Of a stretch of DNA of 59,062 bases, positions 8,368 through 51,932 are shown in pieces. The notes beneath the pieces were generated by a model. The model did not search any database, was not told the origin of the DNA, and saw only the letters and a program-made list of their open reading frames with translations. The DNA is taken from IMG/VR virus record IMGVR_UViG_3300025467_000019, positions 1-59,062 of that record; one strand, written 5' to 3'. The position numbers were made by a program, and so were the translations under genes. This DNA is from a virus. Taxonomy: Duplodnaviria; Caudoviricetes. Each line of letters begins with the position of its first letter. The first letter of the stretch is position 1.

Positions 8368-11300
8368 TTATTTGAATGTAGCTATAGAAGCAAACACCGC
8401 ATATGTAGGTGTGGATGTTAGTTTGGTTACAGAGAAAGTATAGATATCGTTTGCGTTTGCGTTGCCTGAGGAAGGTGCCGAACCACCCTGCCACTTTGGT
8501 GTTACTGCAGTACCGTCAATTTGAGTAGCAGTTTGATACCAAGGTGTGGCACCATTAGTTACAATGAGTGCTAGTGTAACTGTTTGACCTACACCTAATG
8601 TACTGTTTAATGTAGTAGTACTATTACCACGTATATTAAGCACCCAATTGTTAGCATTGTTTGATGTGTAGAATTGTATACCTTGTGTTAATACATCAAA
8701 GTTTGTTGTAGCAGCAGGCGCCAAACCGGTATTAGAAGTAGTTTCTAATACTGTTTGTTCGGTTACTATACCACCGTTAATATTTAAATTGCCCCCGACA
8801 GTTACAGTCGTTCCGTTATCTTGTATTATACTATTAGTAGTAGCAAACGACCCGCTCCATTTAGTTATATAATTTGAGGTACCACTACCTATGATATTAA
8901 CTGTGGGGGTAATTTGAAGATAATTTCCAGTTGGTACGGCTATAGTAGAGCTATTCGTCCAGCTTGTTCCTGGTGTAACGTTAATACGATACCAGGAATT
9001 TTGAGAATATACACCAAATACAGCATATATAGTATAAGAAGAACTATTGTTTTGAACTATATAAAAATTGCTAGGAGATTGAGAATTAGCACCTAAACCA
9101 CCATTATATACAGCTACTCCATCCGCATAAAATGCTCCACTAACACCAGACTGAGAAGAACTGTTATTAGAAGTTTTAAAATATAAAGTGGTGTATTGAT
9201 CTTGAGAGGTGCTGGCATTATAACCCGCGTGAGAGGCTATTTCCATTACAAGTACACAACCACCTTGAGAAGTATTCCAGGTACCAATATTTACATAACC
9301 AGATGTACCATATGTTTCTGGTAGTGTGTATGTTGGTAACATACCAGAATAACCACTTACACCGGAAGTACCTGAAAAACCAGAATAACCGCTTATACCA
9401 GACGTGCCAGAATAACCTGATATACCAGAAGTACCACTGAAGCCGCTAAACCCGCTAAACCCAGACCAACCGCTTATACCAGAAGTACCAGAAAAACCAC
9501 TAATACCGCTTGGGCCGCTAGTACCGCTAGTACCACTGTAACCAGACACTCCAGAGTAACCGCTTATGCCACTGTAACCGCTTATACCAGATGTACCAGA
9601 CCATCCTGAGGTACCACTAAAACCTGAGAAACTTGAATACCCACTTATACCTGAAGTACCAGACCATCCTGAAATACCGCTATAGCCACTATAACCCGAA
9701 TTACCGTAAGCAATTAAATTAGCACTAAAGTATGTGCCTTGACCGGCACCACCGCCCTGTTGTATGGTTTGATTAGTTGGGTTACCAGAATAAACGGTAA
9801 AGTCCATATAATCAGTAGTACCATTTAAATAAACTATTTTTGATTCAGTTTGAGTATAGCCAATACCAGATAAAATCTGAGTCTGATTAATAGCTTGTGT
9901 CGCTCCGTTTTTTCTAAATTGAATATTTGTCTGGTTGGTTACTGTAGACCCTACAGACCACCATACTTGATATGTAACGTTATAGTAACCTGCTACAGTT
10001 GGAGTGAATCTAAAGTTTGATGGGTTATACCAACCGTTAGGATCAATTGAAGCAACAAATGGTACTATTCTGTCTAAACTAGAAGTAACAACTGTATCAC
10101 CACTTAATTGTGCAACTGTAAGGTAATTGCTTGCTGCAAATTGTCCTGGTAGACCAGAAAACCCACTAGTACCGCTATAACCAGACCAACCTGAAGTACC
10201 GCTAAAACCTGATACACCGGAATAACCTGATGTACCGCTCCATCCTGATGTACCGCTCCATCCTGATGTACCAGAAGTACCGCTGTAACCAGATATGCCT
10301 GAGTAGCCAGAAAAACTTGAATAACCGGACCAACCTGATATACCAGATGTACCTGAAGTACCACTGTAACCGGAAGTACCACTAACACCAGATGTACCTG
10401 AAGTACCACTGTAACCGGAAGTACCACTAACACCTGAATAACCGGACCAACCACTTGTACCAGAGTAACCTGATATACCAGAGTAACCACTTATACCGGA
10501 GTAGCCAGACCAACCAGATATACCGGAGTAACCACTTGCACCAGACCAGCCTGACGTACCACTAACGCCTGAATAACCAGACCAACCACTTGTACCTGAG
10601 TAGCCACTTACACCGCTATAGCCAGAGTAGCCTGACACTCCAGAATAACCAGATATACCGGAATAGCCGCTTATACCTGAGTAGCCAGAAAAACTTGAAT
10701 AACCGGACCAACCTGAAGTACCAGAATAACCGCTTATACCTGAATATCCACTTATTCCGCTATAACCACTATAACCGGAAATACCAGAAACACCAACAGC
10801 ACCTCTATATATACCTGTAGAAATGTTACTATAATGATCAGTTCCTAAATAGTAAAACTGTACAGCTACACCATTAACTGCAGTTGTTTTAGCAAATACT
10901 CTATATACTAAACGATCACTACCATCTGCAGTGAGTGTAATAGGTGTACCTATCGTATAACTTTGTTGTTGTTCTGCAGGGTTTGATGTATCTGTATTTG
11001 TTAAAGCATCTCCTTGAGCAGAAAACAATTGTACTTCAGTACCACCTGTGGTACGTCGGTATATAGAATGTATTAAGTTGGTAGTACTGGAACCTACTTG
11101 AGAACCTGTAATAGAGTAATAAGCTGTGAATACCCAAGTACCTTTACTTAAAAACGTTAATTCCGGATCTCCAACTTGCGTTATAAGTTGTCCTAAAGTA
11201 GTAACACCTTGACTTGCACTTATAGTGTAGTTAATGCTTGATTGAGAAGCTGATTCCGGTATTTGAGAAAGATACCCATATGTAATGCCTAAATCAGAAG

Positions 11301-11439
11301 CTGAATTAGTTGGGTAATACGTAACACCAACAGCAGGATTACCAGAATAACCTGAGTAACCTGATATACCAGAATATCCAGATTGACCTGAATAACCTAT
11401 TGGACCTTGAATTGCTTGATATACGAAAGTGTTACTCAT
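8368..11439 (-). CDS. (Gly-X-Ser)n collagen-like fibre protein with C1q-like domain (1023 aa)
   Basis: Several GXS blocks; RFTPTVAGYYNV...IVYLNGTTDYMDF...TYFSANLI is C1q-like; C-terminal KWQGGSAPS domain typical of phage fibre tips. Confidence 0.8.
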   Translation of the reverse strand: MSNTFVYQAIQGPIGYSGQSGYSGISGYSGYSGNPAVGVTYYPTNSASDLGITYGYLSQIPESASQSSINYTISASQGVTTLGQLITQVGDPELTFLSKGTWVFTAYYSITGSQVGSSTTNLIHSIYRRTTGGTEVQLFSAQGDALTNTDTSNPAEQQQSYTIGTPITLTADGSDRLVYRVFAKTTAVNGVAVQFYYLGTDHYSNISTGIYRGAVGVSGISGYSGYSGISGYSGISGYSGTSGWSGYSSFSGYSGISGYSGISGYSGVSGYSGYSGVSGYSGTSGWSGYSGVSGTSGWSGASGYSGISGWSGYSGISGYSGISGYSGTSGWSGYSGVSGTSGYSGTSGTSGVSGTSGYSGTSGTSGISGWSGYSSFSGYSGISGYSGTSGTSGWSGTSGWSGTSGYSGVSGFSGTSGWSGYSGTSGFSGLPGQFAASNYLTVAQLSGDTVVTSSLDRIVPFVASIDPNGWYNPSNFRFTPTVAGYYNVTYQVWWSVGSTVTNQTNIQFRKNGATQAINQTQILSGIGYTQTESKIVYLNGTTDYMDFTVYSGNPTNQTIQQGGGAGQGTYFSANLIAYGNSGYSGYSGISGWSGTSGISGYSSFSGFSGTSGWSGTSGISGYSGISGYSGVSGYSGTSGTSGPSGISGFSGTSGISGWSGFSGFSGFSGTSGISGYSGTSGISGYSGFSGTSGVSGYSGMLPTYTLPETYGTSGYVNIGTWNTSQGGCVLVMEIASHAGYNASTSQDQYTTLYFKTSNNSSSQSGVSGAFYADGVAVYNGGLGANSQSPSNFYIVQNNSSSYTIYAVFGVYSQNSWYRINVTPGTSWTNSSTIAVPTGNYLQITPTVNIIGSGTSNYITKWSGSFATTNSIIQDNGTTVTVGGNLNINGGIVTEQTVLETTSNTGLAPAATTNFDVLTQGIQFYTSNNANNWVLNIRGNSTTTLNSTLGVGQTVTLALIVTNGATPWYQTATQIDGTAVTPKWQGGSAPSSGNANANDIYTFSVTKLTSTPTYAVFASIATFK

Positions 11440-12243: not shown

Positions 12244-13527
12244 TTAAATAATGTTCCAGTTGTTGTTAAATATGATTTCTATTGCAGCATAATTACCTAC
12301 CATTACTGCTGTAGGTAAACCATCAATGGTGTTAGGTGTAGTGGCAGAAACTGTAATAGTATAATTGTTATTAGTTATTACTCCTGACTCGTCTTTAATA
12401 TAATACTTTGTACCGGTAATACCAACTGGTAATACAACCACTGCATTACCTGGGTAATTAACTCCAATATAATAATCGTTAGCTGTTGCTGTATAAGTTG
12501 ATAATGAATCTGAATAAGTTGTATATAGTTTACCAACCACAATACCAGAGTTCTGTATGCCGCGTTCATTTACTACTACTGCTGTAGATGAAGTAATAGC
12601 GCGCATAATTGGTTTAGAAACTGTGTTAGCTGCACTTGGAGAATACGTTACTGTAGCACCAGCTGTAACATCGCTTAAGTAATAGCACTCCCCAGGGGTT
12701 AAACCTATTAAACCATTTATTAAACCGTCATATACAATTGTAAATTGTGTTGCTGTAGCAGTTTGTACCACACCGGTTGCTTCAGCATGAGTTGCACTGT
12801 CAGCTTGTGCTAAATACCAACCACCAGAAGTGTTATCAAGTCTCACTACTTGACCAGCACTAAATGTGTTAGTGTATGTAATAGTTTGACTTGAAATGTT
12901 AACCGGGGAACCACTAAAGCCTGATACACCGCTAAAGCCGCTAAAACCTGATGTACCTGAATAACCAATGTAACCAGAAATACCGCTATAACCACTATAG
13001 CCTGAAGTACCCGAGTAACCGCTTATACCACTAAACCCGCTAGTACCGCTAAAACCTGAAATACCGGAATATCCAGAAAAACCTGATGTACCAGAATAAC
13101 CTGATGTACCACTAAAGCCTGACGTGCCTGAATAACCGCTATATCCAGACCAACCTGATGTACCAGAAGCGCCGCTAAAACCTGACGTACCTGAATAACC
13201 AGAAGTGCCACTAAACCCTGACACACCACTAGAACCTGAAATACCAGAATAACCACTAAAGCCTGATACACCTGAGTAACCACTTACACCTGAGTAACCG
13301 CTTATGCCGCTGTAGCCTGAAAAACCAGAAACACCTGAAGTACCGCTGAAACCGCTTGTACCAGACCAACCACTATAACCGCTGTAGCCAGATGTACCAC
13401 TAATACCTGACCAACCAGAGACGCCTGATGTACCAGAAACCCCTGAAGTGCCAATATATCCTCTGACACCACTATAACCAGAATATCCAGATACACCTAC
13501 AGGATTATAAATTTTATCAAAAGCCAT
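12244..13527 (-). CDS. (Gly-X-Ser)n collagen-like fibre protein (427 aa)
   Basis: About 195 aa of GXS, then the AQAD...ATGVV...YYLSD module and a fibre-type C-terminus (DYYIGV...LP...GTKYYIKDESG...TIDG...W). Confidence 0.8.
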   Translation of the reverse strand: MAFDKIYNPVGVSGYSGYSGVRGYIGTSGVSGTSGVSGWSGISGTSGYSGYSGWSGTSGFSGTSGVSGFSGYSGISGYSGVSGYSGVSGFSGYSGISGSSGVSGFSGTSGYSGTSGFSGASGTSGWSGYSGYSGTSGFSGTSGYSGTSGFSGYSGISGFSGTSGFSGISGYSGTSGYSGYSGISGYIGYSGTSGFSGFSGVSGFSGSPVNISSQTITYTNTFSAGQVVRLDNTSGGWYLAQADSATHAEATGVVQTATATQFTIVYDGLINGLIGLTPGECYYLSDVTAGATVTYSPSAANTVSKPIMRAITSSTAVVVNERGIQNSGIVVGKLYTTYSDSLSTYTATANDYYIGVNYPGNAVVVLPVGITGTKYYIKDESGVITNNNYTITVSATTPNTIDGLPTAVMVGNYAAIEIIFNNNWNII

Positions 13528-17558: not shown

Positions 17559-18626
17559 ATGTCCGTAGATTACCCAAATTTAATATTTCCACACGAGTTA
17601 CCAACAGTACCAGGTCTATCCGGACAGGATCTAATTTACCTCGAACAACCAAACGGTGATGGTACATACACCTCATACGCGATTTCTTTATCTGCTTTAT
17701 TTGGATGGAGTGGTGCAAGTGGTGGGGGTGGTGGTGGCTCAGGTGTGTCGGGTTATTCTGGTGTATCAGGTTATTCAGGTGCATCTGGTGCACCTGGTGG
17801 TACGTCCGGTTGGTCCGGTATTTCAGGTTATTCTGGTGCGACTGGTATTGCAGGTACACCTGGCGCTTCAGGTATATCTGGTTACTCTGGTGCTACAGGC
17901 GCTACAGGTCTTGCCGGTATTTCAGGCTTCTCTGGTTATTCTGGTGCAGCTGGTTCAGATTATACTTTCCCGTCAAACTTAACGGTATCTTTAGCTGCAG
18001 GCTATACATTTGGTCAATACAAAAACGGAGATGTTATACCTGCTGCAGGTTTAACAGTACAAGAAGTTATCAATTTAGCTATAAGCGGTACAATACCTAC
18101 CCCTACTCCTACTCCAATACCTACTATTACCCCTACACCAACTGTTACCCCAACAGTTACTCCTACTCCTACTCCTGCAGCTACTCACACCCCTACACCG
18201 ACACCTACAATTACACCTACTCCAACAGTAACACCTACTCCTACACCTACCCCAACTCGTACTCCTACCCCGACCCCTACCCCTACTGTTTTAACTGGTG
18301 TAATTTATTTCGGTCCATCTGCAGCAGTACCAACAACTTCAAGCGACGTACAAGCTTTAAGTTCAACTTATACAAACGGTGCAAATCCATTTAATTTCTG
18401 GACTGGTACGGCATATAACAATTTTACAGTAGCTTTACCTACTACAAATAGTTTAGTAAGCATAATTGATGCGAATGCGTTCTTCGTTGATTTAACTGAT
18501 CACTTCAGCACTCAAAGCACAATAAGCATAACTGTAGGTGGAACTCCTACTAACTATAACCTATATACTATGACAAACGCTATACCATATAGCCCTTCAC
18601 ATAAACTATTAGTAACATTTTCATAA
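17559..18626 (+). CDS. virion-type protein with GXS/GAT collagen-like block and (Pro-Thr)n stalk (355 aa)
   Basis: GXS/GAT triplets at about aa 60-133; PTPTPT stretch of about 65 aa; TAAGTA at 17543-17548. Confidence 0.8.
18094..18290 (+). repeat. (Pro-Thr)n coding repeat
   Basis: Degenerate cctact/ccaact/cctaca hexamers. Confidence 0.85.
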
Positions 18627-18627: not shown

Positions 18628-20526
18628 ATGCCATTAACTCCAGGTTTAGAAATTCCTTTTGGTATACAACCAGTCAACCCGGTACCGGTTGATACATGGT
18701 CAGGTCCTTATTACGGGCCTAATGAAACAGCGGCAAAGGCAGCAGCTAATGCATCAATACCTCAAGCAATAAGATTTCAGTCTTTACAGGTACGTCTTAT
18801 TATTGCGGGCGTGCCATATATATATTGGTATGATACAGGTACTACAGATACTGACCTGCATGTATTTTCTACAGGCGGTGGTGGAGGTAGTGGTGTATCT
18901 GGTTATTCTGGTTATTCTGGTTTTAATGCTAATAATCAGTCCGTAACTTATGCAAACTCTTTTAGTGCGGGGCAAGTAATTTATAAAACACCTGGTGGTT
19001 ACGATTTAGCATTAGCTAATGATATATATACGTCTGAAGTTATAGGTGTAGTACAGTCAGCAAATAGTAGTGAATTTACATACGTCATTAATGGCTATAT
19101 TTCAGGCTTAACCGGTATAGAAGATGCGACTTGTTATTATCTTTCTGATACAGTACCTGGTCAGTTAACAATGGACGCGCCTACCGTTAGCGGTAGTGTT
19201 ATCAGACCAGTGTTAATTGGTACCAGTACAACAACTGGTGTAGTTGTTGAATTCCCTAGCGTGGTAATTGGTAGTACAAATAACGGTACAAGTGGTTATT
19301 TAGCACGCTGGACCGGTCCACATTCTTTAGGAAATAGCAGTATAATTGATACAGGACCAGATGTTACTATAGCTGCTGACACAACAATTGTCGGTAATAT
19401 TAATATAGTTGGTCATTATCTTTTAAGTGGTGTACCTCTTAGTGATGGGTTTAGTGGTTTTAGTGGTACATCAGGTTATTCAAGTTATAGCGGTTTTAGC
19501 GGTTATTCTGGTACATCCGGACATTCAGGATGGTCTGGTTTAGGTTTATCAGGTTATTCTGGTATATCAGGTTTTTCGGGAAACAGTACATCAGGTTATT
19601 CTGGTATATCAGGTTTTTCTGGTGTTTCAGGTTATTCTGGATCAGGTATAAGCGGTTATTCTGGTGGTAGAGGTTACAGTGGTTGGTCTGGTATTTCTGG
19701 TTTTAGCGGTTATATAGGACAATCAGGCTATTCAGGTACTTCTGGTGTTAGCGGTTACCGTGGTTCAGGTATTAGTGGTTATTCTGGTTGGTCAGGTATA
19801 TCTGGTTTTAGTGGTTTAGGTTATTCTGGTTATAGTGGTTATTCTGGTGCAGCAGGTACTGGAAGTGGATCTATTAACTACTCTGATGTTATAGTTGTGA
19901 GCACAAAAGCTGATAGTTATTGGACTGCATATACATTAACTGGGAATGTTGAAGGATTATATAGCAATTCGCCCTTAACGTTAAGTTCGCAAACCGTATA
20001 CGGTAAACAGTTTAGTAGTGGTACTAAAACACTTATTGTAAATGATGGACCAATACACACTAATAATACATATGGTATATTAGTTGAATTCCCTTCTAGT
20101 CCAAATGTGGGGGATGTTATTAGCACCCCTTGTGTTACAATAAGTAATATAGTTAGCGCCGGTTATTTTGTTCCTGGTACTGTATATACAATTGTAACAC
20201 CTGGCGATACTAATTGGTCTTCTGTAGGTGCTTCGCAAAATTATTCAGGATTTACTTTTACAGCTACCAGTGCAGGCACATGGGATCCAGGAGCCGGTAC
20301 AGCTTCAACCCCGGCTGGAGTAACTTACTTAATATTTAAACCAGCCGCAGGGCAAGTAGCTATACTACAATTTCAAGGCGGTGGTCAAGTATATCCATTT
20401 GGTCAAGGTGCTTCTTATATAGCAGCTTATGTTCCGCTCGGTGGACAATTTGGTGCTCAACCTATTACTTGGGTATATGCAGGTGTAATTAGTGGGGTAC
20501 CGACTTGGTATCAAATGTACTTCTAA
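18628..20526 (+). CDS. (Gly-X-Ser)n collagen-like fibre protein (632 aa)
   Basis: GXS block at about aa 275-410; shares the ALAND...IGVV...YYLSD and [15 protein letters not shown] modules with the next gene. Confidence 0.8.
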   Translation: MPLTPGLEIPFGIQPVNPVPVDTWSGPYYGPNETAAKAAANASIPQAIRFQSLQVRLIIAGVPYIYWYDTGTTDTDLHVFSTGGGGGSGVSGYSGYSGFNANNQSVTYANSFSAGQVIYKTPGGYDLALANDIYTSEVIGVVQSANSSEFTYVINGYISGLTGIEDATCYYLSDTVPGQLTMDAPTVSGSVIRPVLIGTSTTTGVVVEFPSVVIGSTNNGTSGYLARWTGPHSLGNSSIIDTGPDVTIAADTTIVGNINIVGHYLLSGVPLSDGFSGFSGTSGYSSYSGFSGYSGTSGHSGWSGLGLSGYSGISGFSGNSTSGYSGISGFSGVSGYSGSGISGYSGGRGYSGWSGISGFSGYIGQSGYSGTSGVSGYRGSGISGYSGWSGISGFSGLGYSGYSGYSGAAGTGSGSINYSDVIVVSTKADSYWTAYTLTGNVEGLYSNSPLTLSSQTVYGKQFSSGTKTLIVNDGPIHTNNTYGILVEFPSSPNVGDVISTPCVTISNIVSAGYFVPGTVYTIVTPGDTNWSSVGASQNYSGFTFTATSAGTWDPGAGTASTPAGVTYLIFKPAAGQVAILQFQGGGQVYPFGQGASYIAAYVPLGGQFGAQPITWVYAGVISGVPTWYQMYF

Positions 20527-20610
20527 TTTATTCGGATATATTTAGTTTACATATTTAAAAATAAAAAAAACACTATTTTTGTGTAAAGATTAAAAAGTCC
20601 ACTTAAAAGA

Positions 20611-20618
20611 TATAAATA
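20611..20618 (+). promoter_or_regulatory. T4 late promoter consensus TATAAATA
   Basis: Exact match 23 nt upstream of the 2042-aa fibre gene. Confidence 0.7.
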
Positions 20619-20641
20619 TTTTGTAATAACCCAAAATAATT

Positions 20642-23600
20642 ATGTCAATAACACGTGGCGCTTTTTCTGCAGTTTACAATCCAATCGGTGTATCAGGTTA
20701 CTCTGGTTACTCTGGTTCAGGTGTATCAGGCTGGAGTGGTATCTCTGGCTTTTCTGGCTGGTCCGGTATTTCCGGCTTTTCTGGTGTATCAGGCTGGTCT
20801 GGTATATCTGGTTACTCTGGTTGGTCTGGTATTTCAGGCTACTCTGGTGTTTCTGGTTGGTCAGGCATTTCTGGCTGGAGTGGTATCAGTGGTTGGTCTG
20901 GCATAAGTGGTTATTCCGGTTGGTCTGGTATCAGTGGTTATTCTGGTACGTCTGGTTTTAGCGGCACGTCAGGCTTTAGCGGTTACTCTGGTGTATCAGG
21001 CTTTAGTGGTTATTCTGGCACCTCAGGCTTTAGCGGTTATTCTGGTTGGTCTGGTATTTCTGGTTATTCCGGTACTTCAGGCTGGAGTGGTTATTCTGGT
21101 TGGTCCGGCATTAGCGGCTTTAGTGGTGTATCAGGTTGGTCTGGTATATCTGGCTACTCTGGCTGGTCTGGTATTTCTGGTTTTAGTGGCGTTTCTGGTT
21201 GGTCTGGTATTTCAGGCTATTCCGGCGTTTCTGGTTGGTCAGGTATTTCAGGTTATTCCGGTTGGTCCGGCATTTCTGGCTACTCTGGCGTTTCTGGTTG
21301 GAGCGGTATTTCAGGTTGGTCAGGTATTTCTGGCTTCTCTGGCGTCTCTGGTTGGTCAGGTATTTCTGGCTTCTCCGGTGTATCTGGTTGGTCTGGCATA
21401 AGTGGTTACTCCGGTTGGTCAGGTATTAGCGGTTATTCTGGCTGGTCTGGTATTTCCGGTTGGTCTGGTATTTCAGGTTATTCTGGTACATCAGGCTTCT
21501 CTGGTGTCTCTGGTTGGTCTGGTATTTCCGGCTTCTCCGGTGTTTCAGGTTGGTCTGGTATTTCTGGCTACTCTGGCTACTCTGGTTGGTCTGGTATTAG
21601 CGGCTATTCCGGTTGGTCTGGTATTTCTGGTTATTCTGGCGTTTCTGGTTGGAGCGGTATTAGCGGCTTTAGTGGTGTATCAGGCTACTCTGGTTGGTCT
21701 GGTATTTCTGGTTATTCCGGCTGGTCTGGTATTTCAGGCTTTAGCGGTGTATCAGGTTGGAGCGGCATTTCAGGCTACTCTGGTTGGTCTGGTATTTCTG
21801 GTTACTCCGGCTATTCCGGTCAAGACGGTACATCAGTAAAGATTCTTACATATGTAGCAGATGCATATGTTAATCCACCAAACGATCCTCAATCAACATT
21901 AAATACTGCTGCACCATTTGCAGTTAATGGCGACGGTGTTATTGACGAAAAAACAGGTCATTTATGGGTATATACTAATGAAGTAATAACAGTATACCCA
22001 ACAGCAAAGTATTATGGTGGTACAAATCAAAGCAGTCCTACTTCATTAAGAGTATATGCTTCAACACCAGCAGTTGTTCCTGTAGCTGGTGAAAAAGTTA
22101 CAGATGGTATATCTCAAACAGGTATTGCAACAGTAACACCTGGTTCTGATGTTAACGGTACATATTATGACTTAACATTAGATACAGCACAAGATTTTTC
22201 AAATCCAACAACCATTCAAATTCATGCAGATGGTCACTGGACTGACGTTGGTCAAGTAAAAGGTGATTCTGGCTATTCTGGTTGGTCTGGTATTTCAGGT
22301 TGGTCAGGTATTTCTGGCTGGTCTGGTATTTCTGGTTATTCCGGTACATCAGGCTTCAGTGGTACATCAGGCTTTAGCGGTACAAGCGGCTTTAGTGGTA
22401 CTTCTGGTTATAGTGGTTATTCAGGTGTATCTGGCTGGTCTGGTATATCCGGTTTTAGTGGTGTATCAGGCTGGAGCGGTATTTCAGGCTGGTCTGGTAT
22501 TTCAGGTTGGTCCGGTATAAGTGGCTATTCCGGTACATCAGGCTTTAGCGGTGTATCTGGCTACTCTGGTTGGTCAGGCATTTCTGGTTACTCTGGCACA
22601 TCTGGCTGGTCTGGTATTTCAGGCTTCTCCGGTGTATCTGGCTGGAGTGGTATTTCTGGCTGGTCTGGTATTTCAGGTTGGTCAGGTATTTCAGGCTTTA
22701 GCGGTGTATCAGGCTGGAGCGGTATTTCAGGCTACTCCGGCTGGTCTGGTATTAGTGGCTTTAGTGGTGTATCAGGTTGGTCAGGTATATCTGGTTGGTC
22801 TGGTATAAGTGGCTTCAGCGGTGTATCAGGTTGGTCTGGTATTTCTGGTTGGAGCGGTATATCCGGTTATAGTGGTGTTTCAGGTTGGTCTGGTATTTCA
22901 GGCTATAGCGGCGTCTCTGGCTGGAGTGGTATATCTGGCTTCTCTGGTGTATCAGGTTGGTCTGGTATTTCTGGTTGGTCAGGTATTTCTGGTTATTCCG
23001 GTACTTCAGGCTTTAGCGGTTATTCCGGCTGGTCTGGTATTAGTGGTTATTCCGGTACATCTGGCTTTAGTGGCTACTCTGGTTGGTCTGGTATAAGTGG
23101 CTTTAGCGGTACTTCCGGTACGTCAGGCTTTAGCGGTTATTCAGGCGTATCTGGCTGGTCTGGTATTTCAGGTTGGTCTGGTATAAGTGGCTATTCTGGC
23201 TACTCTGGTTGGTCTGGTATTAGTGGTTATTCTGGTTGGTCTGGTATTTCAGGTTGGTCTGGTATATCTGGCTACTCCGGTTGGTCTGGCATTAGCGGCT
23301 TTAGTGGTGTTTCAGGTTGGTCTGGTATTTCAGGTTGGTCTGGTATTAGTGGTGCTGACGCAACATTACAATTAACAATACCATATGCTAACGACTTTAC
23401 ACCAGGTACTGTAATTTACAGAGCACAAGACGGTACATATCAACGCGCAAAAGCAGATGATATTACTACAGTAGATGCAATCGGTATCGTACAAGATGCT
23501 AATGGTAGTCAATTTACGATCGTTTATAACGGTCAAATTTCAAATCTAGCTGGTTTAACTGACGGATACGGTTATTACTTATCTGACACAACAGCTGGTA

Positions 23601-26600
23601 TGTTAACCGATACAGCTCCAACAGTGAGTGGCTCGTTCATTAAACCAATGTTAATTGCTACAGGTTCTACAACAGGTGTTGTAGTTGAATACCCTGCTAC
23701 ACAAATTGGTTCTACAAACAACGGTTCAAGCGGTTATCTAGCACGTTGGACAGGTTCACATACAATTGGTAACAGTAGTATATTTGATACAGGTCCAGAC
23801 GTTACAATTGATGCTAATACAGTAGTTACAGGTAACTTAGCTGTATCTGGTACTATTGTAATGAACGGTGCTGACTTAAAGGGTTATTCCGGTATATCTG
23901 GTTTCTCAGGTTATTCTGGTCTAAACGGCGCTGGTGCTGCTTCAGGTTATAGCGGTTTCTCTGGTACATCAGGCTTTAGCGGTTACTCAGGTTGGTCTGG
24001 TATTTCAGGCTTCTCTGGTACATCGGGCTTTAGCGGTACATCTGGTATTTCAGGCTTCTCTGGCGTATCTGGCTTCTCTGGTGTTTCTGGTTTCTCCGGT
24101 ACATCAGGCTTTAGCGGCTTTAGCGGCTTTAGCGGTACATCAGGCTTCTCAGGCTTCTCTGGTACATCAGGCTTCTCTGGTACATCAGGTCATAGCGGCA
24201 CAAGCGGCTTTAGCGGTTACTCAGGTTGGTCTGGTATAAGTGGCTTTAGCGGTATATCAGGCTTTAGTGGTACTTCAGGTACATCAGGCTTCTCTGGTAC
24301 ATCAGGCTTTAGCGGCACAAGCGGCTTTAGTGGTACAAGTGGCTTTAGCGGTTATAGTGGTACTTCCGGTATATCAGGCTTCAGTGGTACTAGTGGTATA
24401 TCAGGCTTTAGTGGTATATCAGGCTACTCTGGTACATCTGGTATAAGTGGCTTTAGCGGTGTATCAGGCTTCAGTGGTACGTCAGGCTTCAGTGGTACAT
24501 CAGGCTTCAGTGGTACATCAGGCTTCAGTGGTACATCAGGTACTAGTGGTATATCAGGCTACTCTGGTACAAGTGGTACTAGTGGTATATCAGGCTACTC
24601 TGGTACATCAGGTATAAGTGGCTTTAGCGGTATATCAGGTTATAGTGGCGTATCGGGTTATTCAGGTACATCAGGCTTCAGTGGTACATCAGGTACTTCT
24701 GGTATATCAGGCTTTAGTGGCACATCAGGTTGGTCAGGCTATTCCGGTACATCCGGCTACTCTGGTACATCAGGTGTGAGTGGTTATTCTGGTTCAGGTA
24801 TATCTGGTTTCTCCGGTTATCCTGCAGTTGGTATAACATATTACCCAACAACTTCAGCTTCTGAATTCAGCATACAATACGGTATATTAAGCGAAGTACC
24901 TCAATCTACAGCACAAACGTTTACAGCTTATACATTAAGTGCTTCAGAAGGTTTAATAACATTAGGTCAAGTTGTAACACCAATCAGTGATCCAGGTGAA
25001 ATTGAACTCGGTAAAGGTACATGGCAGTTCAATGCATACTATGCATTAACAGGTACTAACCCATCAACAACTACAACAACCTTAAAGCACTCTATATATA
25101 AGAGATCATACCCAGGTGGTACTGAAACATTATTATTTAATGTTATTAGTGATCCGCTTGTTAATACAGATACTGCTAACCCAGCGCTAAGCATTACACA
25201 GTACACAATTACTACACCGATAGCTCTTGATATAACTGATAGATTAGTTTATAGAGTACAAGCTCAAACAACCGATACAGACGGTGTAACAGTTGAATTC
25301 TATTATGGTGGTACAGACCACTATAGCTTTATTTCAACTGGTATATACCGTGGTGCTACTGGTACATCAGGCTACTCTGGTTATTCTGGTACGTCTGGTT
25401 ACTCTGGTACATCTGGTACGTCTGGTGTAAGTGGCTACTCCGGTACATCAGGCTTTAGTGGTTACTCTGGTACATCAGGTACATCTGGTATATCAGGTTA
25501 CTCCGGTACATCAGGCTTTAGCGGTACATCTGGTATATCTGGCTACTCTGGCACATCGGGTTATTCAGGCTACTCTGGCACATCTGGTATATCAGGTTAC
25601 TCTGGTACATCAGGTACATCTGGTATATCAGGTTACTCTGGTATATCTGGCTACTCTGGTACATCTGGTATATCTGGCTACTCTGGCACATCGGGTTATT
25701 CAGGCTACTCTGGCACATCTGGTATATCAGGTTACTCTGGTACATCAGGTACATCTGGTATATCAGGTTACTCTGGTATATCTGGCTACTCTGGTACATC
25801 TGGTATATCTGGCTACTCTGGTACATCTGGTATATCAGGTTACTCTGGTACATCAGGCTACTCTGGCACATCTGGTACATCAGGCACATCTGGTATATCA
25901 GGCACATCTGGTATATCAGGCTTCTCTGGTACATCAGGCTGGTCTGGTACGTCAGGCATTTCTGGTTATTCTGGTATATCAGGTTGGTCAGGCTACTCTG
26001 GTACATCAGGCTGGTCTGGTACGTCAGGCATTTCTGGTTATTCTGGTACATCTGGTACATCAGGCTGGTCTGGTACGTCTGGTATAAGTGGCTACTCCGG
26101 TACATCTGGTTGGTCTGGCTACTCTGGTACATCAGGCTGGTCTGGTACATCTGGTATATCTGGTTACTCTGGTATATCTGGCTGGAGCGGTACATCTGGT
26201 ATATCTGGTTACTCTGGCGTATCAGGCTTTAGTGGTACATCAGGTTGGTCTGGTACATCTGGTTACTCAGGCCCTGGCGCAAATCAAACCTTAAACACAA
26301 CTTCAAATGTAGTGTTTGCTTCATTAAGTGCTGCTACATTATCAGCATACAATGTAAGTGTTACAGGTATATTAGCAATAGGCGATGTAACTGAAACTAC
26401 AACCAATACGGGTTCAGCTCCTGCAGCTACTACAAACTACGATACATTAACACAAGGTATACAATACTATACATCAAGTAACGCAAATAATTGGACATTA
26501 AACCTTCGCGGTAATAGTACTACTACATTAAACAGTGTATTAGGCGTAGGTCAAACAGTTACAGTTGCTCTTGTTACTACTAACGGTGCTACTCCATACT

Positions 26601-26770
26601 ATCAAACAGCAATACAAATTGATGGTAGCGTGGTAACGCCAAAATGGCAAGGTGGTTCAGCTCCTTCGTCAGGCAACGCAAATGCACTCGATGTTTATAC
26701 AGTATCGGTGACTAAGACAGCCGCAACACCAACATACCTAGTATTAGCTTCCGTCGCGACATTCAAATAA
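20642..26770 (+). CDS. giant (Gly-X-Ser)n collagen-like fibre protein (2042 aa)
   Basis: Four GXS blocks of about 300-380 aa separated by three non-repeat modules, plus a KWQGGSAPS tip domain. Confidence 0.85.
25523..25821 (+). repeat. 135-bp tandem duplication inside a GXS block (about 2.2 copies)
   Basis: Marker gcacatcgggttattcagg occurs at 25551 and 25686 with matching flanks. Confidence 0.8.
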
Positions 26771-26864: not shown

Positions 26865-27254
26865 TTAATCATCTAAACGCTTTAAACCAAACACTGACTT
26901 AGCTATATATTGAAATAGTTGTTCTCTTGAAACTGTATCAGTTGCACCAAGTTTAGTATACTTGTGTTGCCAAATTTCAATATCCTTTGTTATTTTATCT
27001 AAAACAGTTTTAAGTTCTTTTAATGCCTCATCTGTATGTTTTATTTCTTCTGGTGTTGCAGGATCAAACAAACCAACAAGCTGTGAACTTAATGCGGTTT
27101 TTGGTTGTTCAGGTTCAAGTATACTTTCTTTATCTTCTAGAGCTGTTTCACCACCGACACCACCATTATAACCTGTTTCATCTGTCCAGGTTTCTTTATA
27201 AACTTGATGGAAGTATTTTTCTACAAGTAATTTATTAAATTCTTCTTTAGCCAT
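26865..27254 (-). CDS. hypothetical late protein (129 aa)
   Basis: ATG ORF with minus-strand TAAATA at 27264-27269. Confidence 0.7.
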   Translation of the reverse strand: MAKEEFNKLLVEKYFHQVYKETWTDETGYNGGVGGETALEDKESILEPEQPKTALSSQLVGLFDPATPEEIKHTDEALKELKTVLDKITKDIEIWQHKYTKLGATDTVSREQLFQYIAKSVFGLKRLDD

Positions 27255-27873: not shown

Positions 27874-27889
27874 GTAAGTAATATCTTAC

Positions 27890-46971: not shown

Positions 46972-48084
46972 ATGTACGATTATTTAATAGTAGGTTCAGG
47001 ATTATACGGTTCTGTATTTGCCCACGAAGCTAAAAAAGCAGGTAAAACATGTCTAGTGCTTGAAATGAAAAAACACATAGGTGGTAACATATACACTAAA
47101 GACTATAATGGTATACACATACATGAATACGGCCCTCATATATTTCACACCTCTAGTAAAAAAATATGGGATTACGTGAATCAGTTTGCAACGTTTAATA
47201 ACTTTGTTAATAGGCCTAAAGTAAACTATAAGGATAATTTGTATTCGTTCCCAATAAACCTATTAACACTTTATCAGTTATGGGGAGTTAAAACACCACA
47301 AGAAGCTATTGAAAAGCTTAATAAAAGTAAAATAAAAATAGATAACCCTAAAAATCTTGAAGAATGGTGCTTAAATGAAGTAGGTACGGAATTATACGAA
47401 ACGTTTATTAAAGGATACACACAAAAACAATGGAAAACTAACCCTAAAAACTTACCATCGTTCATTATTAAAAGAATACCTATAAGAACAAATTTTGACG
47501 ACAATTATTATTTTGATACTTATCAAGGTATACCTATAGGGGGTTATACTCAAATAATTGAGAAAATGCTTGACGGTATTGAAGTTAAGCTCAATGTTGA
47601 CTATCTAGCAAATAAAGACGAGTGGGATAAAAAAGCTAAAAAAGTTCTATACACCGGCCCAATAGACGCGTATTTTAATTATTGCTTTGGAGATCTTGAT
47701 TACAGGACTACAAGTTTTGAGCATATATACAAAGAAGTAAAAGATTATCAGGGTAATGCATTAATTAATTATACTGATGCAAATGTACCGTACACTCGTA
47801 TTATTGAACACAAACATTTTGACTGGGTAGATAAAAACTTTACAGTTATAACAAGAGAGTATCCAGAAAATTGGAAACGTGGTTTGACACCGTATTATCC
47901 AATCAATGACGATAGAAACACTAAAGTTTACAAAAAATACAAAGAAAAATCTCAAACTTTAAAAAACGTGCTATTCGGTGGTAGGCTTGCAGAATACAAA
48001 TACTATGATATGCATCAAGTTATAGCAGCTGCTTTGCACGATTTTGAAAAAGAAAACAGTGGTATTATTAATAACAGTTTATAA
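46972..48084 (+). CDS. glf: UDP-galactopyranose mutase
   Basis: YDYLIVGSGLYG, HIGGN, HEYGPHIFHT, YTQKQW, YQGIP, YTRIIEHKHF, PYYP, GRLAEYKYYDMH. Confidence 0.97.
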   Translation: MYDYLIVGSGLYGSVFAHEAKKAGKTCLVLEMKKHIGGNIYTKDYNGIHIHEYGPHIFHTSSKKIWDYVNQFATFNNFVNRPKVNYKDNLYSFPINLLTLYQLWGVKTPQEAIEKLNKSKIKIDNPKNLEEWCLNEVGTELYETFIKGYTQKQWKTNPKNLPSFIIKRIPIRTNFDDNYYFDTYQGIPIGGYTQIIEKMLDGIEVKLNVDYLANKDEWDKKAKKVLYTGPIDAYFNYCFGDLDYRTTSFEHIYKEVKDYQGNALINYTDANVPYTRIIEHKHFDWVDKNFTVITREYPENWKRGLTPYYPINDDRNTKVYKKYKEKSQTLKNVLFGGRLAEYKYYDMHQVIAAALHDFEKENSGIINNSL

Positions 48085-48094
48085 TTACTTGAAT

Positions 48095-49384
48095 ATGGCA
48101 AAGAAAACTAAACCTCGCATTTTTGTACAACTTGCTTCGTATAGAGACCCGCAATTAGTACCCACGATTAATGATATGTTAGCAAAAGCTGCTAACCCTG
48201 ATCAATTTTCATTTGGTATTTGCTGGCAATATGGAGACGATGAAGATCCAAATATCTATGATAAAAAGAAAAACTTTAGAGTGGTTAAAAAGAAATGGAC
48301 AGAAAGTCAAGGCTTAGGGTGGGCACGTAATATTACCAATTCTCTTTATAAGGGAGAAGAATTCACTCTACAATTAGATTCTCATCACCGTTTCGCCCAA
48401 GACTGGGATAAAATGTTGCTTGAAGATTATGAGCAAGCATTAACAATGTCTCCAAAGCCAGTTATTACAACTTACTGTACACCATTTGACCCTGAAAAAG
48501 AAATTACAGATTTTGGCCCTTGCTTAATGTCTCAATACGAGTTTAGTGCAGATAAGTTACTAATGAGTATGCCATGGTATATTCAAGACTACAAAACACG
48601 TAATAGAGTTATACGTGCACGCACTATAAGTGGTCATTTTATGTTTGCAGCAGGTAAGTTTATTGAAGAAGTACCCTACGATCCAGACATTTATTTTGGT
48701 GGCTACACAGAAGAAACAACAATGAGTGTAAGAGCGTGGACGACCGGTTATGATTTTTTTAGTCCTTACCGTCAATACATTTGGCACGAATATACACGTA
48801 GTTATCGCGTTAAACACTGGGATGATCATGGTACAGAAAAACATACCGGTAAAACTTCAGGTGAAAGAGATGTCTATGCTCGTAACAAAACACGTCAAAT
48901 ATTTGGTCAAGAAGACCATGGTATTGACTTAGGTATATACGGTTTAGGTACAGCCCGTACTTTACAGGAATATGAAAAGTTCGGCGGTTTTGACTTTAAA
49001 AATTGTAGAATACAAGACTATACATTAAAAGTAAATGAACCACCGAACCCTACAGATTATAATACGCAATTTATTAGTAAAGGACGTAAAATACACATCG
49101 ACTGGGATATAGGGTTTTTCTTGAAAGAAAAACAAGAAGGAGATGAGGTGCAATTTTTAACTTTCGGTGTATTGACTCAAAGTGACGTGGAACTATACAG
49201 ACAAGACTTTACTAGAGAAAAGAACCCTAATCATGTTGATTTTAAAGTCAACGAGCACGGAGCAGCATTTCGTAGTATAGATAAGCCTTATAAGATTGTT
49301 ATGTATGCAAACTGGAAAAATAAAGGCTGGGGTAATAGATACGAAAGAGTAATACCTACACTTGCAATGCAAGAAGGACCATGA
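48095..49384 (+). CDS. GT60-like polypeptide GlcNAc transferase (Skp1-Hyp GlcNAcT family)
   Basis: IFVQLASYRD...A.NP...GICWQ...S.G..WAR...LY.GE.F.LQLDSH.RF...WD...VPYDP.IYF..EE...RAWT.GYD...WH.Y.R; start moved to ATG 48095. Confidence 0.85.
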   Translation: MAKKTKPRIFVQLASYRDPQLVPTINDMLAKAANPDQFSFGICWQYGDDEDPNIYDKKKNFRVVKKKWTESQGLGWARNITNSLYKGEEFTLQLDSHHRFAQDWDKMLLEDYEQALTMSPKPVITTYCTPFDPEKEITDFGPCLMSQYEFSADKLLMSMPWYIQDYKTRNRVIRARTISGHFMFAAGKFIEEVPYDPDIYFGGYTEETTMSVRAWTTGYDFFSPYRQYIWHEYTRSYRVKHWDDHGTEKHTGKTSGERDVYARNKTRQIFGQEDHGIDLGIYGLGTARTLQEYEKFGGFDFKNCRIQDYTLKVNEPPNPTDYNTQFISKGRKIHIDWDIGFFLKEKQEGDEVQFLTFGVLTQSDVELYRQDFTREKNPNHVDFKVNEHGAAFRSIDKPYKIVMYANWKNKGWGNRYERVIPTLAMQEGP

Positions 49385-50559
49385 GAATTGTCTTTATATT
49401 AATAGGTAATAGTAGAAGAAGTAACTATTTAGACGGTGACACCCTTCGCTACGGCAATGGAGGGGGGTCTGGAACTGATTCTAGTACTATTGTGGTTGCC
49501 GAGCAATTAGCTTTACATGGCCACGAAGTAGTAGTTACTTCTGATAAACTCGAACCATTACTTGAAGAAGAGTATGCAAAACAGGGTGTACATTTCAATG
49601 CAGGTAAAAAGGTAAGAGGTGTATACTATACCGACATTAACTTTACAAACATTGAAAGTAAAGCTTTTGATGTTATTATAAGCAGTCTATGGTTTCATGA
49701 CTACTCTAAACTGCCTATAACTGTTAGTAAAGCTATAATTTATTGGTGCCACATGCAATGGATATACGGTATAGGCGAAATTACAGATTATGCAAAAGCT
49801 AATAATTTAAGAATAGGCTTTGTTAACATTTCTAGTTGGGAAAAAAGCATGAATCAAGATGTAATTGATAATACAGTCACTCAATTACCAAACACTATAA
49901 GCAAAACTATTCCTAACCCGATAATGGATGACATTATTAATGAAGTACTTGCTACCAATCCAGTAAAAAAGAAACATAAATTTGTTTTTCATGCTTCTTG
50001 GGCAAGAGGTGGTAACGTAGCTATACAGTCTATAAGAGATTTAAACTGGCCAGATGCAGAATTACATGCATTTGACTATTTAATGACTATACATAATCAT
50101 GAAGATTCGTTTTTTCATAAACATGCCGGGGTTGATAAACAAACGCTTTTTACCCATATAGCAGAAAGCGAATATTTTGTATACCCTCTTTATACACCTT
50201 ATAAAGATGTACATAAGGACACATTTTCATGCGTGGTAGCAGAAGCAATAGCACTTGGTGCAGTACCTGTAACTTATCCGCTCGGCGCTTTACCTGAAAA
50301 CTTCGAAGGCTACTGTGCATGGCTAGACTTTCCAGCAAGAGCAGATCCGGAAGTTATGCAAAAAGAATCTTTATCTAAAGATGAGACTGGTCTGTTTACT
50401 TGTACTGATAATATCGTTAAAAAGTTAAACTACTTAGACAATAACCCGGAGTTAAAACAGAAAGTTCAAACTGAAGGTAAAAAATTTATATTAGATAAAC
50501 TCAACGCAAATAAGGTAGGTAATATGTGGGTTGAGTTTATAACTGAACTCACTACATAA
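49381..50559 (+). CDS. GT-B fold glycosyltransferase (GT4-like)
   Basis: GGSGTD...VAEQLA..GHEV; FVYP...DTFSCVVAEAIALGAVPVT...GALPE. Confidence 0.85.
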   Translation: MRIVFILIGNSRRSNYLDGDTLRYGNGGGSGTDSSTIVVAEQLALHGHEVVVTSDKLEPLLEEEYAKQGVHFNAGKKVRGVYYTDINFTNIESKAFDVIISSLWFHDYSKLPITVSKAIIYWCHMQWIYGIGEITDYAKANNLRIGFVNISSWEKSMNQDVIDNTVTQLPNTISKTIPNPIMDDIINEVLATNPVKKKHKFVFHASWARGGNVAIQSIRDLNWPDAELHAFDYLMTIHNHEDSFFHKHAGVDKQTLFTHIAESEYFVYPLYTPYKDVHKDTFSCVVAEAIALGAVPVTYPLGALPENFEGYCAWLDFPARADPEVMQKESLSKDETGLFTCTDNIVKKLNYLDNNPELKQKVQTEGKKFILDKLNANKVGNMWVEFITELTT

Positions 50560-50563
50560 CCAT

Positions 50564-51268
50564 ATGCATAGAATTGTAAGTTTTTATCAAGAGGATCTAC
50601 CTGAGGAACTTGTAGTTTTACAAAAAAGAGTATTTGATCATTTTAGTATACCTCTTGAGCAAGTAAAATTTCCTGTAGATAATAATGGCCATGCTTATGC
50701 TATAGAAGATTACTTAAGAAGTACTCATGATTGGAGTAGTATAACTATATTTGATGTTGACTGTGTACCGTTTGAAAGAGTAGCTATTGATAGAGCATTA
50801 GATCTTATTAAAGACGGCAACACTGTATACGGTAACATACAAGCTTCCAATACCGGAGAGCACTCACCGTACAAATCGCCGCCTTTTGCTGCACCAAGTT
50901 TTTTAAATTTTACACGTAACATATGGGATGATTATATAAAAATATGGGACAATAAAAAAACTACAAACGGGGTATTTCAATTTCAACATTATCCTAATCC
51001 TGACGGTATAGAAGTAGAAGCAGATGTAGCTGAGGTTTTTACTAGAGAAAATGAAAAACGAGGTGTAAGGATAATGCTAGCATATCCTACTAAAAGCCCG
51101 TATGATGATACATGGAAGTATAAAGCGTATTTTGGTTATCCTTATTTCTCATACGGCAATTGTACTGAGTTTGCTAGTGGGACTTGTCATAATTTTCAAA
51201 TTAGAATACCCGACAAACAGAGATACTTTATTAAATATTGCAACAACATATTAAATGAAAATAAATGA
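50564..51268 (+). CDS. putative GT-A glycosyltransferase
   Basis: IFDVDCVP DxD motif, FAAPSFL, DVAE; inside the GT cluster. Confidence 0.6.
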   Translation: MHRIVSFYQEDLPEELVVLQKRVFDHFSIPLEQVKFPVDNNGHAYAIEDYLRSTHDWSSITIFDVDCVPFERVAIDRALDLIKDGNTVYGNIQASNTGEHSPYKSPPFAAPSFLNFTRNIWDDYIKIWDNKKTTNGVFQFQHYPNPDGIEVEADVAEVFTRENEKRGVRIMLAYPTKSPYDDTWKYKAYFGYPYFSYGNCTEFASGTCHNFQIRIPDKQRYFIKYCNNILNENK

Positions 51269-51932
51269 GTTTTTTCAAAAAGGGTATTATATTAATTTGG
51301 ACCGACGTACTGATAGAAGAGCTGAGTTCGAACAAGAAGTCAAAAGAATTGGTCTAGAGGGTTTTTTTGAAAGAGTACCTGGCGTAGATGGTAGTAATGA
51401 ACCGTCTGAACTAAAGAAACATAACTATTGTGGTGCTTCATATGCAAAGATATTTAAAGATGCAAATGAGAAGGGGTACGAGCGGTTTTTAATATTTGAA
51501 GATGATGTACAGTTTTTTGATCGTGATGGTGTGAGTGGTTTAGAATTGATTGAAAAAGCTTTAGATCAATTACAGAAATTCCCTGACTGGGATATGATAT
51601 ATTTCGGGTGCTACACTTTTGATAAAACTATTTATCATGTTTCGGAGAATTTAATTTCAGCTAATCAAATATTAACTACACATGCAATTGGTTATAATAA
51701 GAAAGGAATGCATATGTATCTACAATATAATCCTTTCTTTCACTGCCCTATTGATGGGTGGTTAGGTGAACGTAAAGAACTTACAAAATATATAGTGTAC
51801 CCTTTAGCAGTAATACAAAGAGAGAGTAGAAGTGACCTAGATGCATGGGGTTGGGCACCTAATGCTTTCCATTGGGATGAAAACTTTATTAAAAAGCATA
51901 GTAAATTAATACAAACATTTGAAATAGAATGA
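51255..51932 (+). CDS. glycosyltransferase family 25
   Basis: YINLDRRTDRR, FERVPGVDG, LIFEDDV, DWDMIYFG, TTHA, ID.W. Confidence 0.9.
   Translation: MKINEFFQKGYYINLDRRTDRRAEFEQEVKRIGLEGFFERVPGVDGSNEPSELKKHNYCGASYAKIFKDANEKGYERFLIFEDDVQFFDRDGVSGLELIEKALDQLQKFPDWDMIYFGCYTFDKTIYHVSENLISANQILTTHAIGYNKKGMHMYLQYNPFFHCPIDGWLGERKELTKYIVYPLAVIQRESRSDLDAWGWAPNAFHWDENFIKKHSKLIQTFEIE

Follow-up and report, generated by a model that had tools for sequence, protein, structure and literature searches.

What holds together a fibre in which Gly recurs at every third residue, as in a collagen, when the chain carries none of the features to which collagen stability is currently ascribed? The question arises from a stretch of 59,062 nucleotides (nt) of viral DNA (Duplodnaviria; Caudoviricetes; positions 1 to 59,062 of the IMG/VR virus record IMGVR_UViG_3300025467_000019), called here the window, a linear record of 36.8% G+C that is estimated to be 37% complete. 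Its open reading frame (ORF) at 20642-26770 (+) encodes, in 2042 codons, a fibre-type protein of 2042 amino acids (aa) with four long Gly-X-Ser rods. Current accounts of collagen stability invoke proline or hydroxyproline (Hyp), charge pairs and, in a few cases, glycosylated Thr; this protein of 444 triplets has none of the three. Judged from its sequence, it probably forms a segmented homotrimeric fibre made of collagen-type rods, globular nodes and a C-terminal tip.

With C standing for the number of Gly-x-y triplets and square brackets for other residues, the architecture of the protein is [26]-C124-[142]-C122-[174]-C6-[3]-C95-[184]-C103-[163]. From the N- to the C-terminus its parts are:

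20642..20719, + strand: N-terminal 26 aa, with a motif that includes a Gly-Ser-Gly step one residue short.
20720..21835, + strand: block 1 (aa 27-398), 124 triplets, rich in GWS/GIS; its final triplets, GQD and GTS, run into node D1.
21836..22261, + strand: node D1, 142 aa, an enlarged form of a module of about 54 aa (VTIIG...WVY...VGQVKGDSG).
22262..23359, + strand: block 2 (aa 541-906), 122 triplets, rich in GWS/GIS.
23360..23881, + strand: node D2, 174 aa, with paralogous copies in the genes 18628-20526 and 12244-13527.
23882..24799, + strand: a 6-triplet run (23882-23935), a 3-residue break and block 3 (aa 1102-1386, nt 23945-24799), 95 triplets, rich in GFS/GTS.
24800..25351, + strand: node D3, 184 aa, paralogous to the N-terminal domain of the gene 8368-11439.
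25352..26278, + strand: block 4 (aa 1571-1879), 103 triplets, rich in GYS/GTS/GIS and containing a 164-nt tandem copy.
26279..26767, + strand: C-terminal tip domain D4, 163 aa, of a kind found very widely at the C-termini of fibre and structural proteins from aquatic phages.

The four blocks together comprise about 444 triplets of Gly, a bulky residue and Ser, with no interruption inside any block. Over all 453 triplets of the protein, position Y is Ser in 445 and Thr in one, and position X is W, F, Y, I, T or V in 443 (I 97, Y 89, T 84, W 75, F 64, V 34, others 10). In the 450 triplets counted for block composition there are a single Pro, three Asp and no Lys, Glu or Arg. Usage of X differs by block: W32 I31 Y25 F14 V14 T6 in block 1, W32 I32 Y19 F15 V12 T10 in block 2, F30 T30 I13 Y12 in block 3 and T38 Y29 I20 W8 in block 4. 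Neighbouring X residues switch between the aromatic and the beta-branched class in 353 of 442 steps, compared with 228 +/- 10 (maximum 261) in 2000 shuffles, and Trp at X is followed by Ile at the next X in 65 of 75 cases. This alternation is a local rule with frequent phase slips; none of the periods of 3.5, 7 and 10 triplets, examined in the ORF for W or for aromatics, was consistently above the shuffles. An earlier sequence-only reading of the window had described a 2042-aa frame with four blocks keeping Gly at every third residue, block-specific X usage (GWS-GIS, GFS-GTS, GYS-GTS-GIS), alternation of aromatic and beta-branched X and a Gly-X-Y repeat devoid of imino acids or charge pairs, and the counts bear out all of these, the block boundaries falling within a few dozen bases of those it had given.

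The same reading had noticed that synonymous codons vary between triplets, and had concluded that selection acts on the protein pattern. Indeed, the 65 GWSGIS units are written by 34 distinct 18-nt encodings; Ser in the repeat is encoded by 345 TCN and 95 AGY codons, and Gly by 285 GGT and 153 GGC codons. Exact repeats of at least 50 nt cover just 405 of the 6129 nt of the ORF, the sole long one being the tandem copy of 164 nt in block 4, at 25523 and 25658 (offset 135 nt). Selection on the protein pattern rather than on a DNA repeat is thus supported, both by this synonymous variation and by orthologues in which block lengths are kept while the strings of X residues diverge.

Orthologues were found by a search with a neighbouring glycosyltransferase gene and by a search of viral contigs with an alignment of D2; used as seeds, D1 gave 2 loci and the D2 alignment 13. 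The orthologue G007 has the architecture [27]-C125-[142]-C123-[167]-C5-[3]-C96-[184]-C57-[152], and G003 has [31]-C111-[54]-C109-[168]-C5-[3]-C93-[172]-C5-[2]-C69-[152], while G004 is as G003 except that block 3 has 109 triplets. Blocks 1/2/3 accordingly hold 124/122/95 triplets in the window, 125/123/96 in G007 and 111/109/93 in G003, each of the three in the window being one triplet off its counterpart in G007. All nine G003-type contigs that span blocks 1-2 have 111 and 109 triplets. The orthologous X strings are only about 57% alike, with many alignment gaps. Because block length is kept while the X sequence turns over, selection for rods of a set length is suggested; such a combination would be predicted by a rod of defined length and not by a disordered linker, and it argues for a fold of defined length.

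Nodes can be exchanged between orthologues. D1 has 142 aa in the window and 54 aa in G003; D2 is 77% identical to that of G003 and 68% to that of G007; and D3 is near-identical in G007, with an unrelated domain at the same position in G003. Modules of the D1 type, of about 54 aa, break up collagen-like runs in related phage fibres, including a fibre of the Gly-Ala/Ser-Thr type (L006). The only KGD triplet of the whole protein lies at the end of D1 (22241-22261, VGQVKGDSG), where block 2 restarts, in agreement with the enrichment of KGD beside interruptions reported for collagens (PMC11923368). The VGQVKGDSG junction of D1 with block 2 is conserved in L005, L089 and L091.

Could the repeat copy numbers, or even the whole ORF, have been produced by mis-assembly of short reads? 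Assemblers do struggle in the repeat blocks of relatives: seven of 13 related contigs end within block 3 or 4, and an eighth starts within block 2. The records L089 (G003) and L090 (G004), otherwise identical, differ by an indel of 16 triplets in block 3 only (93 vs 109), which is either natural copy-number variation or assembly collapse, and the exact 164-nt tandem copy in block 4 also speaks for an artefact. In public data, words of the ORF were found in 24 listed runs, 11 of which hold at least half of the sampled words; 23 of the 24 are labelled freshwater metagenome of one year, and they may stem from one campaign and may include the source of the record. Contigs assembled from four freshwater runs contain pieces of 200-800 nt with no difference from the window (for example 20498-21070, 21306-21709, 23350-24001 and 24668-25461). 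None of these contigs spans the ORF, no long piece covers block 2 or the core of block 4, and repeat-induced joints are common among them; they confirm the local sequence and neither confirm nor refute the triplet copy numbers. Mis-assembly is nevertheless a highly improbable explanation, given that exact repeats make up so little of the ORF, that 2042 codons pass without a stop at a genomic G+C of 37%, that four runs returned these identical pieces, and that architecture and block lengths are common to separately assembled orthologues. The repeat lengths appear not to be assembly noise, because such orthologues keep the architecture with nearly the same block lengths. These relatives are a better control than the public-run contigs on the repeat lengths, which the sequence-only reading had named as a possible assembly artefact.

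If the repeat is real, what kind of shaft does it build? By profile the protein belongs with collagen repeats: Pfam Collagen (PF01391) matches it over 17 stretches with E 2.8e-179 and 581.5 bits, the cut-off being 27.2, and the PHROG tail-fibre families 6320 (E 4.5e-194) and 5073 (E 1.5e-187) match as well. The tip points in the same direction. D4 has 3850 relatives at E<=1e-3 and matches the C-termini of annotated tail-fibre and structural proteins of cyanophages and roseophages, including the S-SCSM1 'tail fiber protein (virion protein)' and a structural protein of CRP-3; in the cultured-phage collection, all 23 matching records align only to residues ~1884-2042, that is, to the tip. These profile matches and the kin of the tip support the fibre-type virion protein that had been read from the sequence. 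D4-type tips also follow collagen runs containing Pro or Gln (e.g. 63 triplets in P0216), so the Gly-X-Ser blocks seem to take the place that ordinary collagen shafts have in the architecture of phage fibres. Phage lateral fibres with a long collagen-like shaft and a small receptor domain at the C-terminus have been described (bioRxiv 10.64898/2026.04.10.717836), and so have collagen-like fibre genes in P-SSM2 (PMC1079782). The nodes and the tip have no solved relative in the PDB profile searches made with the D2 and D4 families: D4 gave 0 matches, and D2, which also lacks a Pfam match, gave a single hit, at E 0.62, which was disregarded. In the ESM Atlas, the matches of D2 and D3 were unnamed viral clusters only, some of them carrying Collagen.

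In the segmented fibre that these observations favour, three parallel chains would form one very long structure, each of the four Gly-X-Ser blocks being a collagen-type triple-helical rod. The rise of a collagen is 0.286 nm per residue. At that rise the rods would measure about 106, 105, 82 and 88 nm, or about 380 nm in total if extended. The conserved N-terminal motif would anchor the fibre to the virion, the globular nodes D1-D3 would hold the chains in register and serve as hinges, and the tip D4 would make contact with the host. The stability of the rods would not come from Pro/Hyp or from Lys-Glu/Asp clamps, because the blocks have none. It might instead come from X residues that are all aromatic or beta-branched and favour extended backbones similar to polyproline II (PPII), from large and smaller hydrophobic side chains that alternate on the surface and pack together, from a Ser hydroxyl at every Y, and from trimeric nodes that keep the chains together; O-glycosylation of Ser may add to it. 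The triple helix, the trimer, the source of stability, the attachment site and the binding of a receptor are what we infer from this pattern.

Several points weigh against such collagen-type rods. The PHROG matches are driven by Gly periodicity alone, as are those in the PDB, where sequence searches returned only collagens and other Gly-rich chains aligned through Gly alone. The stabilisers typical of the collagen family (Pro/Hyp, Lys-Glu/Asp pairs, and Thr or glycosyl-Thr at Y) do not characterise the blocks. Aromatic residues were reportedly the least favourable guests in triple-helical peptides, according to work by Persikov et al. in 2000, and a rod with W, F, Y, I, V or T at every X would have a very hydrophobic surface. 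A head-closure-like gene near the fibre gene leaves the tail, the neck or the head as the putative site of attachment. A survey of 2025 holds that Lys-Glu/Asp salt bridges guide collagen folding in all domains and in viruses, with KGD forming 13% of viral triplets (PMC11923368), as against one KGD in the 2042 residues here. In the same survey, Ac-(Gly-Pro-Thr)10-NH2 remains a random coil except when its Thr carries galactose (PMC11923368), and a Gly-X-Ser chain may for that reason fail to fold unaided.

A bolder proposal is offered tentatively, as one that is possible but more doubtful than not. The blocks might represent a third natural solution for a collagen-type triple helix, consisting of a hydrophobic side-chain ladder (large and small alternating) plus Ser hydroxyls, without imino acids or salt bridges, possibly with phage-encoded O-glycosylation of Ser, and with rod length set to the single triplet. 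If true, this would be an exception to the salt-bridge 'folding code' proposed as universal for collagens, and a new design rule for synthetic collagens. A possible use lies in simple, hydroxylase-independent collagen materials, if the rods fold.

The sequence-only reading had named a polyglycine-II bundle like the snow-flea antifreeze protein as the other option besides an unusual triple helix. In snow-flea bundles, turns connect short PPII segments that have Gly or small residues on two of their three faces. The window protein shares the three-residue Gly periodicity, but its 95-124 triplets per block are unbroken and free of turns, the only breaks being nodes of 142-184 aa, and X is bulky in 443 of 453 triplets, in contrast to small proteins made of short helices and turns and rich in Gly and small residues. 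A bundle of the snow-flea type was rejected on these grounds, and PDB sequence searches gave no match to polyglycine-II bundle chains. We infer that the 'unusual triple helix' is the best available reading.

A packing of long PPII strands side by side without a supercoil, perhaps with blocks 1 and 2 folded back on each other at D1, is a different matter, although it too is distinctly unlikely. Such folding back would suit the relation of these blocks, which lie exactly two triplets apart in length in each of three lineages (124/122, 125/123 and 111/109) and whose X strings are more alike within a genome (identity 0.71, 0.65 and 0.62) than between orthologues (0.50-0.64). The likeness points either to half-fibres matched about a knee or to blocks that were partly homogenised. 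Matched lengths are not general: in L005, a more distant relative, runs of 10+73 and of 17 triplets flank the same D1 node. Matched half-fibres would equally fit a hinged rod like the long tail fibre of T4. That fibre has two similar-length rods about a knee and a distal receptor-binding tip, and is built of several proteins with beta-structured shafts. The window fibre resembles it in that blocks 1 and 2 are length-matched around D1 in three of the four lineages examined; unlike it, the window fibre is one collagen-like chain, and no homology was found between the two. Untwisted assemblies do exist, namely the snow-flea antifreeze protein, gp38 of phage S16 and the C1q stem (PMC11869133), and among the bundles compared here, which also include springtail antifreeze proteins, S16 gp38 is likewise part of a phage fibre (PMC11869133). 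The blocks are nonetheless poorly suited to the packing, having no turn-forming breaks within 95-124 triplets, Gly at only one of three positions and a bulky X that makes tight Gly-lined contacts unavailable; their PDB sequence matches are confined to collagens and Gly-rich chains. A course of block 1 along the tail was also considered and dropped, tape-measure frames of 955, 897 and 649 aa not being proportional to its 124, 125 and 111 triplets.

The alternation of classes at X invites one more fold, in which the unit G-aromatic-S-G-branched-S would build up a silk-like cross-beta fibre, a beta-solenoid or a triple beta-helix. Beta propensity is high in aromatic and beta-branched residues, the shafts of many phage fibres consist of triple beta-helices or beta-spirals, and homologues of the tip are annotated 'sericin 1 precursor-like' in cyanophage records, this last being an annotation only. 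A beta-rich fold is nevertheless very unlikely, since 444 triplets with Gly strictly at each third residue bear the mark of a three-residue helix and not of the two-residue beta periodicity. There is, moreover, no longer coherent period that would define the coil of a solenoid, and the block lengths of orthologues shift by single triplets (124 vs 125, 95 vs 96).

Where in the phage would the segmented collagen-type fibre belong? Upstream of its gene lie a terminase gene (13632-15401) and the head-closure-like gene (16592-17530); downstream come a gp19-like tube gene, a sheath gene, four tube paralogues, a baseplate hub gene, the tape-measure gene and a gp5-like spike gene. The fibre gene thus falls inside the virion structural module, and the ORF is a real structural gene of a contractile-tailed phage (myovirus) that comes from fresh water and is uncultured. 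The terminase shares no more than 35% identity with its counterparts in T4-superfamily phages, and a megablast search of 27000-47000 against cultured phages gave no match. Four neighbouring genes also encode Gly-X-Ser proteins:

8368..11439, - strand: paralogous Gly-X-Ser fibre gene for 1023 aa, with 120 triplets (Ser at Y in 114) between a D3-like N-terminal domain and a D4-like tip.
12244..13527, - strand: paralogous Gly-X-Ser fibre gene for 427 aa, which shares the N-terminal motif and has 66 triplets and, at the C-terminus, a D2-like domain.
17559..18626, + strand: 355-aa protein in which the Gly-X-Ser/Thr runs are short and a (Thr-Pro)n linker spans about 65 aa.
18628..20526, + strand: 632-aa protein with a D2-like domain and interrupted Gly-X-Ser runs.

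The nodes of the 2042-aa protein recur among these four genes, and its N-terminal motif is common to the 427-aa fibre and to several fibre genes of relatives; this motif is likely to be the common attachment end. The fibres of the phage form a modular family whose members probably dock through a shared N-terminus, and several fibre types on one anchor would widen the choice of receptors. In the relative L005, three fibre genes begin with nearly the same N-terminal motif (FSYTYNPVGFSGYSG...) as the 2042-aa and 427-aa proteins of the window, which suggests interchangeable fibres on one docking site. L005 (4517-20443) and the window (8368-26770) are relatives with five or six consecutive Gly-X-Ser/Thr fibre genes. 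In the 355-aa protein, the (Thr-Pro)n linker (18096-18287; TRF period 6, 32 copies) lies between a Gly-X-Ser/Thr run and the C-terminal domain, and looks like a typical linker of the O-glycosylation type. The protein points to very long, hinged fibres of multiple types on freshwater myoviruses. With a length of about 380 nm, three hinges and a widespread tip, such a fibre would widen the radius within which a phage can capture hosts in dilute fresh water.

Might the many Ser residues carry sugars? Directly after the baseplate genes lies a group of genes whose connection with the fibre is hypothetical:

46972..52765, + strand: sugar cluster encoding a UDP-galactopyranose mutase (PF03275, E 5e-79), a PF11397 'GlcNAc' glycosyltransferase, a PHROG glycosyltransferase, and GT25-like and GT11-like proteins.

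The PF11397 gene (48044-49384) matches its family with E 8.7e-59 and 200 bits, the cut-off being 21, and a profile search of the PDB with this glycosyltransferase gave 0 matches. PF11397 corresponds, as we take it, to CAZy family GT60. Enzymes of GT60 start mucin-type O-glycosylation of Ser/Thr-rich domains in protists (PMC8724618). The blocks might then be extended, flexible chains, a mucin-like tether in which some 440 Ser residues, together with the Thr-Pro linker of the neighbouring protein, carry O-glycans added by the phage, giving stiffness and solubility, or being needed for any helix to form. The presence of the sugar cluster within the window agrees with such a tether, as do the mucin-type activity of GT60 and the conversion of the (Gly-Pro-Thr)10 coil into a triple helix by galactosyl-Thr (PMC11923368).

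Co-occurrence of the enzyme and the repeat was followed in both directions. Relatives of the PF11397 gene occur at 52 IMG/VR loci, with 53-78% identity; of these, 48 were searched for collagen-like ORFs (L042, L053 and two others were left out), and 15 of the 48 records have them, all nearly Pro-free, Y being mostly Ser in nine and mostly Gln in six. In the reverse direction, 42 of 80 listed loci with the GYSGISGY pattern were used, on contigs of at least 20 kb and with one locus per contig, the controls being the first 42 Gly-Pro-Gln loci of the same kind, 38 of which were searched. PF11397 was present in four of the 42 Gly-X-Ser records and in one of the 38 controls (Fisher two-sided p = 0.36). 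It was absent from all eight GYSGISGY records with a completeness rating of 90% or more, and from both L005 and L006. A collagen-like run lies within 10 kb of the glycosyltransferase at only five of the 52 loci, and all five are of the Gln type. Phage glycosyltransferases can also act on DNA or on host glycans, and conserved block lengths are more readily explained by a rod than by a loose tether. A mucin-like tether is therefore unlikely, while O-glycosylation of Ser by the sugar cluster is a lead suggested by gene content; if glycosylation occurs, the PF11397 enzyme is not its general agent. The Gly-X-Gln collagen-like type found near PF11397 (L044-L049, L059-L064) is also poor in Pro, e.g. 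GVQGFQGTQ, with Gln at 67-76% of Y, and it is carried by six records (G038-G043).

How common is the repeat type? An aromatic Gly-X-Ser class was defined by Ser at Y of at least 0.75, aromatic X of at least 0.3 and Pro of at most 2%. Among 120 listed long metagenomic relatives, 24 are aromatic Gly-X-Ser proteins, 55 non-aromatic Gly-X-Ser proteins and 25 of other kinds, the remaining 16 falling short of 50 triplets; the listed aromatic ones reach at most 154 triplets. DNA coding for GYSGISGY was found in IMG/VR in more than 120 stretches, often many per contig. In 596 Gb of prokaryote genomes the pattern gave 86 stretches, and seven of the 80 listed have at least two matches, all seven lying in metagenome-assembled genomes. 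In L005, Glu makes up 10-15% of the X residues and part of the triplets have Thr at Y; in view of this relative, the charge-free state of the 2042-aa protein is the extreme of a range. The class was not found in the searchable cultured phages, in which the tip domain alone matched, and no description of aromatic Gly-X-Ser collagen-like repeats was found in the literature searched; the supplementary tables of PMC11923368 may list such triplets. The repeat is thus abundant in viral metagenomes, yet absent from the cultured phages and the literature that were searched. The sole blastn match of block 1 among cultured phages, Bacteroides phage BT03 (PV788058.1, L099), was rejected as spurious, being the reverse strand of a Pro-Glu-Thr repeat. 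BT03 has four tandem paralogous genes of about 175 aa with (Pro-Glu-Thr)n tails, the reverse strand of which mimics Gly-X-Ser coding DNA.

Among known systems, the phage collagen-like shafts are close in plan. Those of P-SSM2 (orf23 and orf28), phi24B gp61 and E. coli prophage proteins have, like the window protein, Gly-X-Y repeats in fibre genes, non-collagen interruptions and a small C-terminal globular domain, and such shaft proteins are thought to be trimeric (PMC1079782; bioRxiv 10.64898/2026.04.10.717836; PMC3368898). The published shafts carry Pro and/or charged residues, whereas the window protein has one Pro and three charged residues in 450 triplets. In the P-SSM2 runs that were scanned, Pro occupies X in most triplets (GPT, GPS, GPA, GPP), unlike the window protein with its aromatic or beta-branched X and Ser at Y, and the triplet number of the window protein (444, in four blocks) is far larger than that of published phage shafts. 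A second group, the collagens with Thr-linked O-glycans (Riftia cuticle collagen, Bacillus BclA and the (Gly-Pro-Thr)10 peptide), shares with the window protein a hydroxy amino acid at Y in place of hydroxyproline, and glycosyl-Thr is treated as an alternative collagen stabiliser (PMC11923368). These have Thr, usually with Pro at X, and a glycosylation that has been shown; the window protein has Ser at Y and never Pro at X, and its glycosylation is hypothetical. The 2042-aa protein thus functions like the phage collagen shafts and belongs to the collagen repeat family by profile, yet lacks the composition that explains the stability of every characterised member.

Three further features of the window were observed. 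Tube-like genes are present in unusual number at 30511-36163, with one gp19-like gene before the sheath gene and four tandem phrog_45 paralogues after it. A 2OG-Fe(II) oxygenase (PF13759, E 2e-10) is encoded at 7009-7677 (+). A flavoprotein of the tryptophan-halogenase family (PF04820, E 2e-21) is encoded at 56538-57809 (-), in a phage whose fibre gene has 75 Trp at X.

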